Source: Octopus vulgaris (Eukaryota). From it: 64,000 nucleotides of DNA. Under the pieces are notes generated by a model. That model searched no databases. It saw nothing but the letters and a program-made list of their open reading frames with translations, and had not been told where the DNA came from. Positions within the stretch are counted from its first letter, which is position 1; each line of letters opens with the position of its first letter. Location of the stretch: assembly GCA_951406725.2 (NCBI GenBank), contig OX597819.1, forward strand, positions 23,374,001 through 23,438,000. The letters run 5' to 3'. Positions 3,573-51,459 of this stretch are shown piece by piece. Made by a program: the position numbers and the translations under genes.

Positions 3573-3975
3573 TTACTCTTTTACTCTTTATACTTGTTTC
3601 AGTCATTTGACTGCGGCCATGCTGGAGCACCGCCTTTTAGTCGAGCAACTCGACCCCGGGACTTATTCTTTGTAAGCCCAGTACTTATTCTATCGGTCTC
3701 TTTTGCCGAACCGCTAAGTGACTGGGACATAAACACACCAGCATCGGTTGTCAAGCAATGCTAGGGGGACAAACATACACACACACACACTTATATATAT
3801 ATACATATATACGACAGGCTTCTTTCAGTTACCGTCTACCAAATCCACTCACAAGGCATTGGTCGGTCCGGGGCTATAGCAGAAGACACTTGCCCAAGAT
3901 GCCATGCAGTGGGACTGAACCCGGAACCATGTGGTTGGTTAGCAAGCTACTTACCACACAGCCACTCCTGCGCCT
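3573..3975 (-). mobile_element. tRNA-derived SINE, family C (GGCGCAGGAGTGGCTGTGTGG head, internal TA/TG microsatellite, GTAAAAGA tail)
   Basis: Near-identical to 17412, 22549, 23318, 29779, 43870, 52210. Confidence 0.9.
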
Positions 3976-4555: not shown

Positions 4556-4862
4556 ACATATATAATTCTTGAGCCGACTCATAACATCGGTTGCCTGGTT
4601 TCCATAGCATTTAAGTGACCGAGGTCACAACATACTCCTAAACAGTTGCAAGGTTTGATGTCACCAATTTGAAAGCGAAGGTACAAGCCGATTATATCAA
4701 CCCTAGTACTTGACTGGCACTTTATTTTATTGAGCCCGAAGAGATGACAGTCAAAGTTGACCTCGACGAGATTTGAACTCGGAACATAACGTGACAGAAG
4801 AAATGCTGCTGTGCTAACGATTCTGCCATCTCGCCGCCTTAGTGTGTGTGCGTAAGAGAGAG

Positions 4863-5139: not shown

Positions 5140-6742
5140 GTTTCTTTATTGGCCACACAGGGCTGCATACAGATGGGACAAGTTACAAGGTAGAGCTTTT
5201 CTTTTGGGGGATGAAAAAAACAAAAAACAAAAGAAAAAAATAATAAATAAATAAAATAAAAAATAAAAAGAATAAAAAGAAAAAAAGAAAAGGAAAAGGA
5301 ACAAAAGAAAAAAGAAGAAAAAAGGGGGGAAAAAGGGGAAGAGGAAAAAAAGAACGATCAATAGGGATCGTGTATCACAGTGTTATGATATATGGTGTAA
5401 AGGGGAAAGCAAGTAAGGTTTATCCGTGGGAAGAAAAGCCTACGAAGAAGACCACGGTAACCTTGGTCAATATTGTTATATGTTACCACATTTGTTTGCA
5501 AGTGGGTAACCCTCTGTTTTCAATTTCTGGGTTCATAGGATTATGCTCAAGGTGGCTTCGTCATTCATACGTGCCATCCTTGCTACATTCACCCATCTTT
5601 TTTTAAAACATTCGCTAAACAAAACTTGCCTCTCTACTCTCACTTTCCTTTTCAAGTGGTACTTGAAGAAGTTGATGAGAGAATGACCAGAGAGGAAAGT
5701 GTTTGTCTCCAATCCTTTCAGACGCGTCCACCAGATACATTCTTTCGCCATAGCCACAAGGATGATGAAAATAGCTCTTCCTTCCCGTTTGAAGGAAGGA
5801 GGCGTGACAATATTGACGATAGACTCAGCTGATAAACCGACTCGTCCCACACGTGACAGCAGTTGTTCGACACAAGCCCACAGGTCGGAGATTGTTGGAC
5901 ACTGCACGAGTGCGTGCAGAACGGTTTCGTCGCTCTGACCGCATCTCTGGCAGGTCGGCCCCGTGTTTCTCGAGCCGTGTCTGTAGAGCTTATCCCGAAC
6001 GGGTAGCGCTTCTCGGTAACACTGCCAGGCCAGGGATCTCTGGAAGTTGTCCATGGGCCCTGGCCCGAAAGTCGTCCTGAACAGGCGGGTCAGGTACTCC
6101 TCGTCGACGTCCAGGTTCGCCCCGAGCTCGTCGTCGTACCTCCCCTCCACTAATCCCCTATAGAATACTTTGGTTGTGTTGAAGTCACTCAAGGTCGACC
6201 TTGAGAGCAACGCGACACTCGCGGTGCCATTCGCCCTTCCTCGGCCTCTTTTTGATCCACGACTGCAGTTCGATCATGGAGACGAGCTGCGGGAAAGCGT
6301 GCCTCACAAACGGCGACCACACCTGTTCACCGTCGTCTACATAGAGCCAGAGATGTCGCAGTTCAGCGCGTGTCTGCGCATCATCAACCACGGCATGCCC
6401 AGCTCTCCTTTTAACGGGTGTTGACAGCAAATGGATGGCCTGACCATCGGGACGCATCCTTTCCACAAGAAGCGAAAGAGAATGCGTTGTAGTTTGGTGA
6501 TGGTGGGTCGGGACAAGGTACGACGGTCAGGCGGTAGTAGATGACGGACGCGATGTACGTGTTCGCCACCTCCGCCCGACCTTTTAGGGACAGTTTCCTC
6601 TCGGCCCATTGCCGGGCGAGAGTGACCACCCTATTCGTTATCTTGTTCCAGTTCTTCTCCACTTGGAGGTCCGGACCAAACCAGACCCCGAGCAACTCAA
6701 CCGGGCCGTCGGTCCAGCGTCCCACGACGGAGGCGCTGGTGG
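5138..6742 (-). mobile_element. L1/Tx1-clade non-LTR retrotransposon, 5'-truncated: RT C-terminus, CCHC zinc finger, 3' UTR with AATAAA
   Basis: Frameshifted ORFs 6411-6725, 6337-6609, 6185-6466, 5533-6210: LLGVWFG, LSLKGRAEVANTYIASVIYYRL, GELGMP, W..YREALPVRDKL, CQRCGQSDETVLHALVQC; GC-rich relative to flanks. Confidence 0.9.
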
Positions 6743-7737: not shown

Positions 7738-7804
<67 letters not shown>

Positions 7805-13241: not shown

Positions 13242-14264
13242 TGAGGTTATCCTAGAAGTTCTGTCCGAATTTTGAATAAAGAAAACAAGTGATCAAATGT
13301 TATATTTAATTGAAATTTAATTATCAATGTACTTTCCCTGATTATCTATGACTTACTTCCATCTATTTACAAGCTTTTTAATCCCATCAATGTAAAACTC
13401 TTTTGGTTGCAAAGCGAAGAACTCTGAAATATCAGGTTCGACCTCCTCCTGGCTTGCGAAAGTTGTGTCCCCCTAATAATTCTGTAAACTATGAAATAAA
13501 TGGTATCCTGAAGGAGTAAGGTCGGGAGAATAAGTTGGATGAAGAATTTTTTTCCAAACAGGCCTCTTCGATCTTCTGTGATGTGATCTTTGCAGTGTGG
13601 GGTCGCGCATTGTCCTGCTGAAACATCACACGTTTCGACTCACTAAAGCGGGTCTTTTTTCCTTCAACGCTTGGTTCAAACGCTCTAATTGCTGACAGTA
13701 GACTTGAGCATTGATTGTTGCATTAAGTGGTAACAATATAAAGTGAATCACTCCTTTGCAATCGCACCAGATATAGAGAAGACTTTTTCCCATGAAGTTC
13801 CTTTTTCGGTTGTGGTTGAGCTTTTTCCCTTTTACCAAGCCACTGTTTACAACGTTTAACATTTCGATAGAAGATCCATTTTTCGTCACCAGTCACAAGT
13901 CTATCCAAAAAGGGTGAAATGAGTTCGAGAGCATGGAGAGAAGAACAGATGTCAACTCGGGATTTGCGGTTGCTTGCGGACAATTCATGAGGTACCCATT
14001 TTCCAAGTTTAGGAATCTTTCCAAGTTGTTGACGATGACGATGAACTGATGTATGGTTTGAACTAAGTTTTATTGCCAATTCTTCAACTGACAATGCATG
14101 ATTTTCTTCAAGTAATTCCTCAAGAAGCTTATCATCAAACTCAACTGGATGTCCTGTTCGATCTTCATCTTCAAGGCTGAAATATCCACTTCTGAATTTT
14201 GCAAACCATCTTCTGACAGTTCTTTCATTCAAACATTCTTTCTCATAAACTGAGTATATGTTTA
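13242..14264 (-). pseudogene. mariner (DD34D-type) transposase pseudogene, 5'-truncated
   Basis: WFAKFRSG..LEDE, WVPHEL, TGDEKW, QDNARPH, YSPDLTPSGYHLF motifs across frameshifts. Confidence 0.9.
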
Positions 14265-14466
14265 CAGTAATCCTTCGCTATATCGCGGTTCATCTATCGC
14301 GGTTTATTATTTAAGCTGACGTCGATTTCTCCATGGTATTGTTTTGCACTTATGATAAAATGAATATATACAAATTATAAAAATAATTTAAAAAAATATA
14401 CGGTACTGTTTCTACCTCGCGGTATGGAGGTGAAAATTTACAGCCACCATAGTTGAGGGATTACTA
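14265..14466. mobile_element. pogo/Tigger-like MITE
   Basis: TIR CAGTAATCC..GGATTACT, TA-flanked; related to 32593-33125. Confidence 0.7.
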
Positions 14467-19980: not shown

Positions 19981-20398
19981 CATCATTGCCTTTGCACAGC
20001 TTCTAACGCTGGAGATGTATTACAGTGTCAGCTGTTCACTACCAGTGAACTAACGTAACATATCTTATTTTTCGAGCACCTTCCAGAATATTCGAGTGGT
20101 TCCAAGCAGTGCTGTTTTCTACAAGTGCTCCACCCTTATTGCAGCCCCTATTTGTTCCACGTACTTCTCGAGATTTTTGCTCACTGTTCCCAGTGCTCCG
20201 ACAATTTTCATAGACCACAATTCCTTTAATTAATTGTTATAGCCATATTAATATGGCATTCTTATAGATATAAGAATAATCGCTGCCATGGTCAGCTCCA
20301 TGAGGCCACCGCCATCAAGATAGCTATTGATACACGATCTGTATCCATTATAGCCTTCGAACAAGGGAGGTCAGCCGCTTCACACTGCCAGTCCGACA

Positions 20399-20440
20399 GC
20401 TACAGACGCGTTTCGGGGTATTGCCCCTTGTCAATGTAGC
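20399..20440 (-). ncRNA. Minimal type I hammerhead ribozyme, U3:A8 variant
   Basis: GCUACA UUGACAA GGGG CAAUA CCCC GAAA CGCG UC UGUAGC. Confidence 0.8.
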
Positions 20441-21036
20441 GCAGTCAGACCCGCAGGTGTCGCCACTGACGTCTGTTCGAAGGCTTATATTTACCTAGTT
20501 TCAGTGGAATACATCCACTTGTTTTCAATAATAGAAATATTAAAATTACTAAGTCTCTATAAAAGAGATTATGGCAGCGTTTACTGGAAATTAATTGTTA
20601 TCGACATATTAATATGGCATTCTTATAGATATAAGAATAATCGCTGCCATGGTCAGCTCCATGAGGCCACCGCCATCAAGATAGCTATTGATACACGATC
20701 TGTATCCATTATAACCTTCGAACTGGCAGTGGGAAGCGGCTGACCTCCCTTGTTCGAAAGTTATAATGGATACAGATCGTGTATCAATAGCTATCTTGAT
20801 GGCGGTGGCCTCATGGAGCTGACCATGGCAGCGATTATTCTTATATCTATAAGAATGCCATATTAATATGTCGATAACAATTAATTTCCAGTAAACGCTG
20901 CCATAATCTCTTTTATAGAGACTTAGTAATTTTAATATTTCTATTATTGAAAACAAGTGGATGTATTCCACTGAAACTAGGTAAATATAAGCCTTCGAAC
21001 AGAGACGTCAGTGGCGACACCTGCGGGTCTGACTGC

Positions 21037-21078
21037 GCTACATTGACAAGGGGCAATACCCCGAAACGCGTCTGTAGC
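21037..21078 (+). ncRNA. Minimal type I hammerhead ribozyme, U3:A8 variant
   Basis: identical to 20399-20440; stem I extendable by GUCUGAC/GUCGGAC. Confidence 0.8.
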
Positions 21079-21678
21079 TGTCGGACTAGCAGTGTGAAGC
21101 GGCTGACCTCCCTTGTTCGAAGGTTATAATGGATACAGATCGTGTATCAATAGCTATCTTGATGGCGGTGGCCTCATGGAGCTGACCATGGCAGCGATTA
21201 TTCTTATATCTATAAGAATGCCATATTAATATGGCGATAACAATTAATTTCCAGTAAACGCTGCCATAATCTCTTTTATAGAGACTTAGTAATTTTAATA
21301 TTTCTACAATTCCTTTACTTCCCAAGCTAACTTGCCATATCTCTAGACTTTTCTTTCTTCTTTATCGCATATCTTGTTGTTAGCTGGGCATGCTATATTT
21401 ATGATCCAGTATAGTTTGCTTTCTTTCTCAATTAAGACTATGTCAGGCTTCCTATTTTCTATCTCATGGTCGCACTGCATCATAAAATCCCATAGGATCT
21501 TTGCATTTCCATTTTCGACGATGTCTGCAGGTTTGTGGTCGTACTTTTTTATTCATTCAGGTCACCGCCTGGAATCGAAATCGGAATCTTGAGGTTAGTA
21601 GCCAATGGTCTTAACCACTACGCCTCATGCCCGAAAAAATACCTTAGGAATGAGAACCCAGGTTCGAAATTTCCCCAA

Positions 21679-21724
21679 AACACATGATGAAGGCTGGAGG
21701 GTATATCAGCCGAAACATTGTGTT
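21679..21724 (+). ncRNA. Minimal type I hammerhead motif (C3>A in this copy)
   Basis: AACAC AUGAUGA A GGCUG GAGGGUAUAU CAGCC GAAA CAUU GUGUU. Confidence 0.6.
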
Positions 21725-47545: not shown

Positions 47546-49462
47546 ATTACAGATAGAAAAATTGCAAATGTGTTCCTCACTAAGTCTTTAATGCTTCCTT
47601 CACTGCAGTCTCGTCGATGTCTTGCGAAGGAAGTGTTTTAGTTGTTCAAATCCGGACACGATTTCCATCAGGTGCATTGTTGTATCTAGTGGAACCAATG
47701 CAAACTAAAAAAAAAGCTTGAATCTATGCCTTTGGCTACGTCAAGTTGGTAGTATTGATCTGCTAAGTCGAACAATGATACAGTCTTTACGTGCTCACTC
47801 GATTGCCAGAAATAGAATCAAATCTCCTTCAAACCATATATTCGTGCCTTTAAAAGACACGCTGAAAAATATAGTCTAAAGTACACGTTATATGAAAAGT
47901 AGACTTAATGGTAATATCTGACATACCTTTGTCATAAGTCCGCTTTTTCAATTTTGGCTTAGGATTACTGAACTCCAGCTATCAAAAAAAGGTTGATGTG
48001 TTCCATATGCCTCTGATTCCAGCTGCCAAGCCTGTTTCACAAACGACAGCGATCATGGACTTCCATGCCGAATTCTAAAGATTCATAATTTGGTGGCGGG
48101 GATGCGGTAAATTTGTAGCTTACTCTGCTACTACTCTCCTCCTCTTCTGGACTTAATTTTGAGGCACAGAGCTTGTCGGTAGGCACACTGGCACACGTGA
48201 CATGAAGGCCTGTCTACACACACATGTATACTGGTGAATCTCTGTAACATATCTCTAGGGACCAATCCGCCGCCGAATCCTATATGGTTAGATCACTAGA
48301 TAGTTTTCTGCTATTTGATCCATTACTGGGGCCTTTTACTGGTACTACTACACTGAACATACGTAGGAGTAGCGGTAACTAAGGGGTTACCCTGTACTCC
48401 CAAAAACTCTTGGACTCCCAAGCTCTAACCACTTCCGCTTCACTGGTTGCAGTTTAATGTCTTACCTAGGACAAATTCCATTACAAATTTTACACGTATG
48501 TCCTCACTGATGTTTGCACCAGCGCATTCCACTCTATTTCTTCCTCCCTCACACCAGAGTTCATATGTACTTTTAGAATTAATGAATCAATCTAGCTAAT
48601 TATGGCTGTCTGAAACGTTTAGAGATTAGAAAAATAACAAAACGTTCTCCACCTTTGTCTGATTGTCAAAAGTCATTGTCTAGTAATTGTCTAGGACTCT
48701 GGAACATTTCTGCATACATATGAGACAAATGAGATTCCACGCAGTCATTGTCAGTCTCACGATCGTAACGTCGTAGGTTCGATTCCCACAGTGGGTACTT
48801 CATTTCATCTGGCTCGAATCCGCTTAACTAATAAATGGGTAACGTGCATCGGCTTCTCAGCAGTGCTTCGGAAATCATAAGATGAAAATCTTTCAAATGT
48901 AAGATGTTAACAGCCATTGGTGGTTACACAAGCTGGATAATTATTGCCTCCCAACATGCAAAGTTAAGCAAAACACTTGTAACTTTCGAAGCACTGCTGT
49001 TGCTTATATCATTTGTTTAATTCGGTCAGCTGAAATGATCGCAAGAGAATTAAACGTCTTAAACTATACTCATCACCGCTTTGGTAACTCTATAAAAAAA
49101 GGGGAAGAAAATAAGTGTTGAACGCAGTGTCGCTCTGAAAACAGAAGCAAGATTGAGTACTTCACCCTTATAAGACAGGAAAAAATTTGCTAGCAGAAGG
49201 CTACAGGTATTGAAGCCTTCAGAGACCGGCTGAGAACTCTACCATATATGCGTATAAGAAGGGATGACCACTAAGTGGACATCCAATATGCTAGAAGTAG
49301 ATCACCTACGATCTAACCACTAAGAAAAGAATGATCTCTAGAAAAATTCAGCAAACACGAGAACATAAGCGAGTAAGACAGATGAAAATATACAAAATAA
49401 AGAATTAATCGAAGACCGGTTCCGCCATTATTTAAATTTTATTTAAAATTTAAATCACCTTC

Positions 49463-49515
<53 letters not shown>

Positions 49516-49519
<4 letters not shown>

Positions 49520-49829
49520 GATGTACTTGCATAGCGAGTGACTTGATCTGAGATCGTGTGCTGGAACGAAAACAATTGCAGCGTGGAAGGTGTTTATAAG
49601 CCATTTAAGAAACACACAAAACCGTTAGATTCACTTCAACATTTAAATTTAATTTGTCAAAATATTTTCGTCGCTTTGAGACCGCGACCTGTTCACTGAC
49701 AAAACTTCAGTGAACAGGTCGCGGTCTCAAAGCGACGAAAATATTTTGACAAATTAAATTTAAATGTTGAAGTGAATCTAACGGTTTTGTGTGTTTCTTT
49801 AAATGGCTTATAAACACTTTCTACGCTGC

Positions 49830-49833
<4 letters not shown>
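49516..49833. mobile_element. Fold-back Penelope-like terminal repeat within (TA)n
   Basis: arms 49574-49699 / 49707-49833, nearly perfect. Confidence 0.85.
49653..49703 (-). ncRNA. Minimal type I hammerhead, G3:C8 variant
   Basis: UUUGUCA GUGAACA G GUCGC GGUCUCAAA GCGAC GAAA AUAU UU UGACAAA; second copy 49707-49749 (+) with a shortened stem I. Confidence 0.7.
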
Positions 49834-49904
<71 letters not shown>

Positions 49905-49917
49905 TATATACATATAT

Positions 49918-50012
<95 letters not shown>

Positions 50013-50078
50013 CACATATATATACACACACATACATACAGAAATATACATATATATATATATACATCCATACAGAAC

Positions 50079-50139
<61 letters not shown>

Positions 50140-51459
50140 CAACCGACTTCCTCAATAGCCATCTACTAAATTCTTTTCTCAAGCTAGTAGTCAAACGAAG
50201 GATGTAGTAGATGACATCTGCCTGCCAAAAGTGTTGTGCAAAGAGACCGAACCTGGAACCACATGGTTTTGAAAGGAACTTATTAATCACACATCCCTCT
50301 GTCGTATTTGAGACCGTTTTATTCCCTAAGTACTTCAGTTATGTGTCATTTCGTTTTTTAATTAACGACTCTGCCATTCCTATTTACATACTCTGTCACG
50401 TCTTAATGTCATTTTGCACGTTGCCTTTCGACGGAAATTTTCTTGTATTTCATTATGATTGAATTAAAGCCAACTTCTCCAGTGTCTGTTGTTGATGTTG
50501 TTTAATTTTTTGTTGCTGATGTTGTTTTCTTAATGAAGGAAGAGATATCAAAGCTTTCCAGACTAACTGGACAAAGGAAGAATGCTACCGTCAGACCAGA
50601 GACGTGGTTCGACTAATTTCAGTGGTATCTGCTCAGTTTTCGACAGGTTTGCGGGCTGCTTTTAAACCTTGCGACGTATTGGATCTAACGTCTACCAACA
50701 GGAATTGTTTGACTACTTGGCACCGACACAGTTTATTTCTATCAAATGTTTTATTCGATCCGAGGCAACGATCGAAAATACTTGATCTGTGTACTGTGCG
50801 GTGGAATTTAACCGGAAACACGTTTGTTACGAGACAAACGTCTTACATACTCAACAACAACCGCACTTATTTTCAACTTATTAATTGAACTACTGCCATG
50901 CAATGAATTCTTGATGCGAGTTATGTCTCTTTCGTTTTGTTCTTTTAATATTATTACTCACGGTGTTGCAATTAATATTTTATTTCTTATTCTATCCGAA
51001 TCTTATCTATGTGCCGTCTCTTCAATTAGACTTAACTTAATCTATTTTTGGCTTGTTCAAGTGCTTCATAATATATTTACTTTTACGTTGTAAGTATCTC
51101 TTGTTTACTTGTAATCAGTTTATGTGTGATTGTACTTAACTGTTTCACTACGCTGTGTACTGTGCTTTTTGCGTTCGGTCAGATAATATTGATGTGATCA
51201 GTCTTGGAGTCTTGGTATCTTCTTTCCTGTTTTCAACTGGCGCTTTTTGATCAGACTATCAACGATCAACTTTAAGATGCAATGTTGAGATGATGAAGAA
51301 ATCGATAATCAACAGAAGTGCTTAGGATTATCCTGTGGGAGCGGGTGAGTGGGTGGGTTATATGTGCGGGCATCAACTTATGTTTGTATGGGTAATGTTT
51401 CTTTCCCCCTTCTCTCTCTCTCTCTCTCCCTCTCTCTTGCTGTCCCTATATTTTTATCT

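Follow-up and report, generated by a model that had tools for sequence, protein, structure and literature searches.

Minimal type I hammerhead ribozymes are found in the pLTRs of metazoan Penelope-like elements (PLEs), where they exhibit low activity as dimers, and functions besides cleavage have been allowed for them (Cervera and de la Pena 2014, PMC4209133). An extra base between positions 9 and 10.1 is the norm in these hammerheads, with H as the consensus, and the sole core covariation named in the parts of that paper considered here is U3-A8, the variant carried by the Cercyon PLE of Schistosoma (PMC4209133). U3-A8 was also described as the natural covariation of the core (PMC3088659). 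The 3:8 pair is a contact of the active conformation, and laboratory constructs with G3 were less active with C17 than with G17, a comparison marked 'data not shown' (PMC3884650). In the Poseidon element of Anolis (PAc), single mutations at positions 3 and 8 abolish cleavage and the double mutation C3G/G8C partly restores it (Frangieh et al. 2024, PMC11167929). The same double change is given as a partly active laboratory mutant in a further source (PMC8495972), and the two papers bear out the statement of the first-pass annotation that it partly rescues activity. Cleavage is unnecessary for the insertion of PAc, and hammerhead mutants had no effect on insertion in vitro; reverse transcription starts at two internal sites early in the ORF, and uncut RNA is the main template (PMC11167929).

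The EN+ PLEs of the Neptune and Nematis type encode a C-terminal GIY-YIG endonuclease with a CX2-5CxxC linker and target (TA)n. Naiad elements are successful although they have no canonical hammerheads (Craig et al. 2021, PMC8557442). Non-LTR retrozymes are built of non-coding head-to-tail monomers, each with a hammerhead (bioRxiv 10.64898/2026.07.22.740005). General background was also taken from PMC6765202. Our literature search found no natural G3-C8 hammerhead; the numerous PLE variants of Lunse et al., which were outside its scope, may include such molecules. The octopus motif described here is likely the natural counterpart of a change found in print as a laboratory mutant alone.

Structure of the fold-back insertion and its hammerhead

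The window, a 64,000-nucleotide stretch of the Octopus vulgaris genome (assembly GCA_951406725.2, contig OX597819.1, positions 23,374,001 to 23,438,000), contains a fold-back, the product of a short insertion in which two pieces of a Penelope-like retroelement's 5' end stand head to head (Table 1). The arms of the fold-back (49574-49699 and 49707-49833) are 97.6% identical over 127 nt and are separated by a loop of 7 nt. The near-perfect fold-back inside (TA)n reported by the first-pass annotation is thus present within the span given there, 49574 to 49833, but the element reaches further, to 49517. Its long arm starts about 14 nt past the inferred transcript start and continues through the hammerhead into the rest of the 5' UTR, and the 3' limit of the arm is the second of the two start points of reverse transcription (the end of the tail), as placed by the survey of copy ends described below.

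Table 1. Features of the fold-back insertion and its surroundings in window coordinates
Feature	Position	Strand	Basis or remark
(TA)n target, left side	49469..49515	none	sequence
Long arm, covering the element's 5' end	49517..49706	-	match to L164 3' of position 3730
Codons 1-29 of the RT-endonuclease ORF	49517..49604	-	ATG at 49604-49602; frame continues in the long ORFs of L164 and L147
Complete type I hammerhead fold	49653..49703	-	sequence and folding
7-nt loop at the fold-back junction	49700..49706	none	2 nt of microhomology at 49707-49708
Short inverted arm	49707..49833	+	stops at the first of the two frequent 3' ends
(TA)n-rich target, right side	49833..50134	none	sequence

The minus-strand motif, read from 49703 to 49653, contains the 7-bp stem I, 5-bp stem II and AAUAUU stem III of the earlier reading. 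Stem II (49688-49670) is closed by a 9-nt loop. The core consists of G3 (49696), U4, G5, A6, A7, C8 (49691) and A9, followed by GAAA, and an additional G (49689) is located between A9 and stem II. Stem III is a 6-nt palindrome (49666-49661), U16.1 is present, and the predicted cut site lies between U17 (49660) and 49659. Three helices therefore surround U4 G5 A6, A9, G12 A13 A14, A15.1-U16.1 and an NUH site, as in other type I hammerheads. The literal C3 and G8 are absent from the core of this family, hereafter family A, and a Watson-Crick 3:8 pair is retained as G3:C8. Of the two arms proposed to carry the hammerhead, the minus arm contains it complete. In the plus-arm copy the core is intact (G3 at 49710), but the 5' strand of stem I is largely missing and the stem is reduced to 3 bp. 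The first-pass annotation also considered the G after A9 and the UUU cleavage triplet unusual. The G is there, and it also occurs in sister families with C3:G8, but PLE hammerheads normally have an extra base at this point (PMC4209133); many other hammerheads of the octopus genome share U17. The fold-back, its (TA)n target, U17 and the base inserted behind A9 are all ordinary features.

In the inferred transcript, stems I and II form with pair probabilities of 0.69-1.0, and the palindromic stem III is very weak (-0.2 kcal/mol). Folding of a dimer provided no usable model of stem III. According to the fold computation, an RNA running through both arms is one perfect hairpin (-210.6 kcal/mol), which hides both motifs. 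Pairing of the leader with loop II in a pseudoknot was considered and rejected, since loop II varies without a matching change and the leader G is absent from the genomic template.

Other hammerheads and open frames are located elsewhere in the window. At positions 20301-21200 another element forms a nested fold-back; its hammerhead has U3:A8, C17 and a strong CGCG palindrome, with the core at 21043 on the plus strand and a mirror copy near 20434 on the minus strand, and similar motifs occur in L161, L152 and L261. The hammerhead at 21684 is a decayed copy with A at position 3, from a family whose other copies (L014, L074, L115, L179 and L344) are canonical C3:G8 with U17. The open frame at 5533-6273 resembles the terminal part of an ORF from a non-LTR retrotransposon, and that at 13723-14277 is presumably a fragment of a mariner-type transposase, both assignments being our assumption.

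Parent element and route of insertion

Copies of family A that extend upstream lead into an ORF, the start of which corresponds to the 29 codons in the window. The copy L164 is a partial tandem with a unit of 4261 bp, and its hammerheads at 3742 and 8003, one in each pLTR, flank the ORF. The frame of L164 begins about 55 nt after the motif, opens with the 29 codons of the window and runs into the reverse transcriptase (RT). A 1025-residue open frame in L147 contains YVDD and, at its C-terminus, GIY-YIG, and the CX3CxxC linker that we read in it by eye falls within the CX2-5CxxC form of Neptune and Nematis. The Pfam scan recognised GIY-YIG in the frame of L111 (E 9.2e-05, 23.1 bits against a cut-off of 22.6) and returned no match to an RT family. 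The linked Penelope ORF that the first-pass annotation had proposed to look for was thus found, as a frame with RT and C-terminal GIY-YIG in a 4.3-kb element. A protein 98% identical to its product is on record from an octopus as a 'hypothetical protein', and the other nearest matches looked up are unnamed.

The single ORF with RT and GIY-YIG, the partial tandem of hammerhead-bearing pLTRs, and the inverted 5'-truncated copies with an optional tail are those of EN+ PLEs. The element fits the Neptune/Nematis type as judged by its described features. Identity with Naiad or Chlamys was rejected because the N-terminal endonuclease is absent and GIY-YIG is at the C-terminus. The copy is not a short non-autonomous SINE or retrozyme, since the upstream sequence led to an ORF, and a non-LTR retrozyme was dismissed because the window copy derives from a coding element and joins its pieces head to head, in place of non-coding head-to-tail monomers. 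The end of a Penelope ORF in L016 was set aside as part of a neighbouring insertion on the other strand.

The ends of insertions were surveyed with the start codon as anchor; the 99 arms used come from L167-L256 and represent the first 100 listed matches apart from one region. The 5' ends of 52 arms lie within -15 to +8 of one point, 41 are downstream of it and six upstream, four of the latter looking like simple-repeat alignments. The pile-up is located about 60 nt upstream of the predicted cut site and often includes an extra G. In the 43 short copies that reach +1 and contain no genomic upstream sequence, the preceding base is G in 24, the genomic C in 11, A in four and T in four; 22 other copies were set aside, and L081-L116, whose search pattern fixed the upstream bases, were excluded. 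Reverse transcriptases can copy the cap as an extra G. The pile-up and the extra G are likely the capped transcript start copied by the RT. A branch-point-like word, a pyrimidine tract and CAG/TAG, overlapping an initiator-like word, lie just before the inferred start (L164 3698-3722); it is possible that they are a 3' splice site and that the pile-up is a splice product. No shared first exon of more than 1-2 nt was seen upstream of the pile-up.

The copy ends show no genomic footprint of cutting: two of the 99 5' ends are within 5 nt of the predicted cut (+60/61). Therefore, the insertions of family A likely derive from uncut RNA. Family B, introduced below, likewise has no such footprint, with two of 28 5' ends within 10 nt of the cut. 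The 3' ends of family A, searched over 70 nt past the anchor, form two clusters about 60 nt apart, with 46 of the 99 arms ending at 3-13 nt and 51 at 59-70 nt. Head-to-head fold-backs account for 50 of 86 insertions, and (TA)4 is present within 30 nt after 76 of 134 3' ends. The window copy may be explained as an ordinary product of this route, in which a long arm from the far site was copied to about +14, the cDNA snapped back through the 7-nt loop, presumably the priming point, and a short arm was extended to the near site. The same fold-back junction with near-identical flanks occurs at eight places of C1 (L036, L037, L049, L050, L051, L056, L058 and L060), which indicates that one fold-back was multiplied within a larger repeat.

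Conservation of the G3:C8 pair

A 28-mer located at the start codon matches the assembly exactly at 7738 places. In one fixed frame, 6529 of 7081 matches (92%) contain G3:C8, compared with 371 that have another base at position 8 and 181 that have another base at position 3, and G3:C8 is thus the consensus, a point that the first-pass annotation had proposed for verification with its GTGAACA core. A shorter frame produced 62 double changes, among which other families are included, against 13 control matches. In contigs from four public runs with four organism labels, no difference of at least 1% is listed at position 3 or 8; the table also misses transitions of about 2% present in the assembly, which makes it a weak check. 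One family A copy (L325, C18:35453000-35462900, at 4852) has C3:G8 in one arm and G3:C8 in the other, a double reversion of a single arm.

Sister families have hammerheads with C3:G8. In family B, whose RT is 55-59% identical, the hammerhead is at the same place, with A9 or C9 and C17 or U17; in family C it is also at the same place, with C17. Family D, with the motif again at this place, combines C3:G8 and U17 with the inner stem I of family A in 12 of 14 matches, the remaining ones being one further D-like and one A-context copy. In an alignment of 15 sequences from the four families, 96.1% of 180 cells are paired, compared with 20-46% in slid controls, and five of 12 pairs exhibit changes on both sides. 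Family A differs from families B, C and D by double changes at 3:8 (CG in 11, GC in four), in a pair of stem II (AU in nine, GC in four) and in a pair of stem III (GC in eight, AU in four). Because the 15 sequences are related, any double change counts as a single event, and the observed number of covarying pairs was attained in 42 of 500 shuffles. The earlier proposal of a compensatory variant is supported by the double change at 3:8, accompanied by those in stems II and III, and its fixation in a Penelope-like family by the census and by the RT and GIY-YIG of the element.

A search pattern with a base other than A at position 7 had 252 matches and exposed an older, diverse G3:C8 group (group E) of 30 loci, of which 12 were read and eight aligned. 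The 12 loci keep G3, C8, U4-G5-A6, A9 and GAAA; they have C, U or G at position 7, and loop II, the other loops and the UTR have diverged. Matches to the ORF start are 49-70% identical (four loci). The search pattern itself fixed G3 and C8, which presets the share of G3:C8 among its matches; the second arms of two loci, L422 and L423, also have G3 and C8. A looser pattern for further G3:C8 families was swamped by family A matches, and gave two candidates with two and one matches, the first of which led to group E. The second, L399 (C1:7019226-7019252), is a lone G3:C8 hammerhead-like match with another stem II and no partner for the 5' strand of stem I, and may be a chance match.

Within family A, hand-counted subfamily markers fall on five of eight positions of loop II and on one of 43 positions of the core and stems, where the change preserves a wobble pair (p = 0.0001). 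The comparison of the same 1/43 with the rest of the 5' UTR (7/66) is not significant (p = 0.14). All aligned G3 copies with an intact cleavage site have U17, whereas C17 occurs in the C3 families B and C. U17 is also found in family D with C3:G8, and therefore it was not a change made for G3. Family B is very young; its copy L149 (C5:115838000-115847900) has an intact ORF of 1312 residues with a long Asn-rich insert, and the hammerhead contains C for A9; C17 has changed to U17 in the youngest copies of family B. The replacement of A9 suggests that hammerhead motifs of PLEs can drift in active elements.

The unpaired combination G3/G8, predicted to be a dead form, is present in 214 copies, including both pLTRs of L166 and the long elements L139, L140 and L159. 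It is about ten times as frequent as the opposite transversion at position 3 (12 in the first 100 of 181, counted by hand) and about ten times the background rate of 0.3-0.5%. G3/G8 spans all subfamily backgrounds, and it is confined to one arm in 11 fold-backs and present in both arms in four. This mostly single-arm occurrence points to mutation after insertion and away from an old lineage. An amplified evolutionary intermediate is not supported by these two features. The copies are few on the largest contigs and clustered on small contigs and at contig ends, for example C16:0.6-5 Mb. No general excess of C-to-G changes was found in family A copies or in the ORFs, and G3/G8 is not listed at 1% in the read contigs, which likewise omit 2% transitions at those positions. 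The excess of G3/G8 may reflect either a mutation hot spot or assembly error. The G3:C8 variant itself is real, fixed and old.

Possible function of the reversed pair and comparison with known systems

Based on the copy ends, the census and the sister families, a role of the motif can be proposed. We consider it probable that the G3:C8 motif is a slow, dimer-dependent self-cutting RNA kept by selection in a Penelope-like element that often inserts as fold-backs. Several observations weigh against activity, namely the lack of copy ends at the cut site (although family B lacks them too), the weak stem III, the core and stems being not significantly more conserved than the remaining 5' UTR, the drift of family B at A9 and the 214 copies with G3/G8. 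Transcription would start about 23 nt before G3, so that the capped mRNA would contain the hammerhead in the 5' UTR. The RT of the element would begin at either of two sites within the first 30 codons and copy uncut RNA back to the cap or near it; the cDNA would then fold back to prime its second strand and be placed in (TA)n by the endonuclease. Two copies of the motif are predicted to pair through the 6-nt palindrome, G3 and C8 forming a pair in the way of C3 and G8, and a cut following U17 would free the mRNA of its cap end or split tandem precursors into units. Cutting would not be needed for each single insertion. The presence of U17 instead of C17 probably made the swap tolerable, because G3 could otherwise trap C17. 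More tentatively, we speculate that a whole clade of octopus Penelope elements has long run on the reversed-core hammerhead (G3:C8, U17) as a deliberately slow off-switch that cuts only when two transcripts meet. Located in the element's mRNA at a distance of 60 nt from the cap, the hammerhead would limit the element when its RNA is abundant and leave most of the RNA uncut for insertion.

Alternatively, the fold may be kept as a binding site of the element's protein or because it overlaps an internal promoter just past the transcript start, the G3:C8 core being catalytically dead or of negligible activity. The origin of the insertions from uncut RNA is consistent with this, as are the location of the motif at +17 to +67 relative to the inferred start, a region in which promoter elements are to be expected, the about equal conservation of the remaining UTR, the functions besides cleavage allowed by Cervera and de la Pena (PMC4209133) and the unaffected in vitro insertion of hammerhead mutants (PMC11167929). 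However, bases 3 and 8 are known to be in contact in the active conformation (PMC3884650), their Watson-Crick pairing survived a double change and is still present in group E despite the variable position 7 and altered loops, and a promoter acting as DNA would not keep compensatory pairs. We regard this explanation as unlikely. Less likely still is that the ribozyme died in an ancestor by the change of C3 to G, was re-paired by a chance second change, and has hitch-hiked since. Unpaired G3/G8 copies exist, long elements among them, family B tolerates the loss of A9, and Naiad elements do without canonical hammerheads (PMC8557442); nevertheless, the other core positions and the three helices are intact across families with 55-59% identical RTs and in group E, and the 11 discordant against four concordant fold-backs assign G3/G8 mostly to mutation after insertion. 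That the resemblance to a hammerhead is due to chance, or G and C to assembly errors, is hardly credible: a Rfam search of 48500-51000 with E up to 5 found no hammerhead among 23 matches, which were sub-threshold hairpin-driven microRNA matches, but canonical hammerheads of sister families occupy the same position with the same stems, G3:C8 recurs in 6529 copies with double changes relative to those families, a pairing-aware scanner found a single match, non-pairing at 3/8, in 785,526 shuffled bases drawn from 200 loci and read on both strands, and the read contigs of four runs list, within their limited sensitivity, no difference of at least 1% at 3/8.

If the proposed self-cutting takes place, the octopus motif is a natural catalytic core with a purine at position 3 and a pyrimidine at position 8, and the combinations C3:G8 with C17, C3:G8 with U17 and G3:C8 with U17 form a natural series for testing how a catalytic tertiary pair flips. 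No new chemistry is implied, the double change being already known as partly active in the laboratory. Searches for hammerheads use cores with C3-G8 or U3-A8, and therefore miss a family with thousands of copies; similar variants may be concealed in other retroelements that score as motif-negative. The role of hammerheads in PLEs is an open question, for which the octopus genome offers sister families with C3:G8, U3:A8 and G3:C8. The mapping of the likely transcript start and the measured lack of cut templates make kinetic and reporter comparisons simple.

The octopus motif resembles the PLE hammerheads described by Cervera and de la Pena in its type I layout, its place in the pLTR, the extra base, the G10.1-C11.1 pair, the short palindromic stem III and the many solo and inverted copies (PMC4209133). 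It differs from them in having G3:C8 instead of C3:G8, a longer stem I of 7 bp, and G as the inserted base, which is outside the H consensus. The U3-A8 variants are, like G3:C8, natural double changes at 3:8, but they retain a pyrimidine at 3 and a purine at 8, the orientation that is reversed in octopus (PMC4209133, PMC3088659). Among Neptune and Nematis elements, the octopus element has its counterparts in the GIY-YIG endonuclease, the linker, the (TA)n target, partial tandems, and inverted 5'-truncated copies with an optional tail, which is about 60 nt long compared with the 30-40 bp described (PMC8557442). The C3G/G8C mutant of PAc has the same double change in a PLE hammerhead, but there it was engineered, whereas in octopus it is natural and fixed. 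PAc belongs to a different clade of PLEs, and its motif overlaps the start codon, whereas that of octopus is wholly in the 5' UTR. Family A resembles PAc in its two probable internal starts of reverse transcription early in the ORF, the gap between which is the 'tail', and in the likely use of uncut RNA as template, which is the main template of PAc (PMC11167929).
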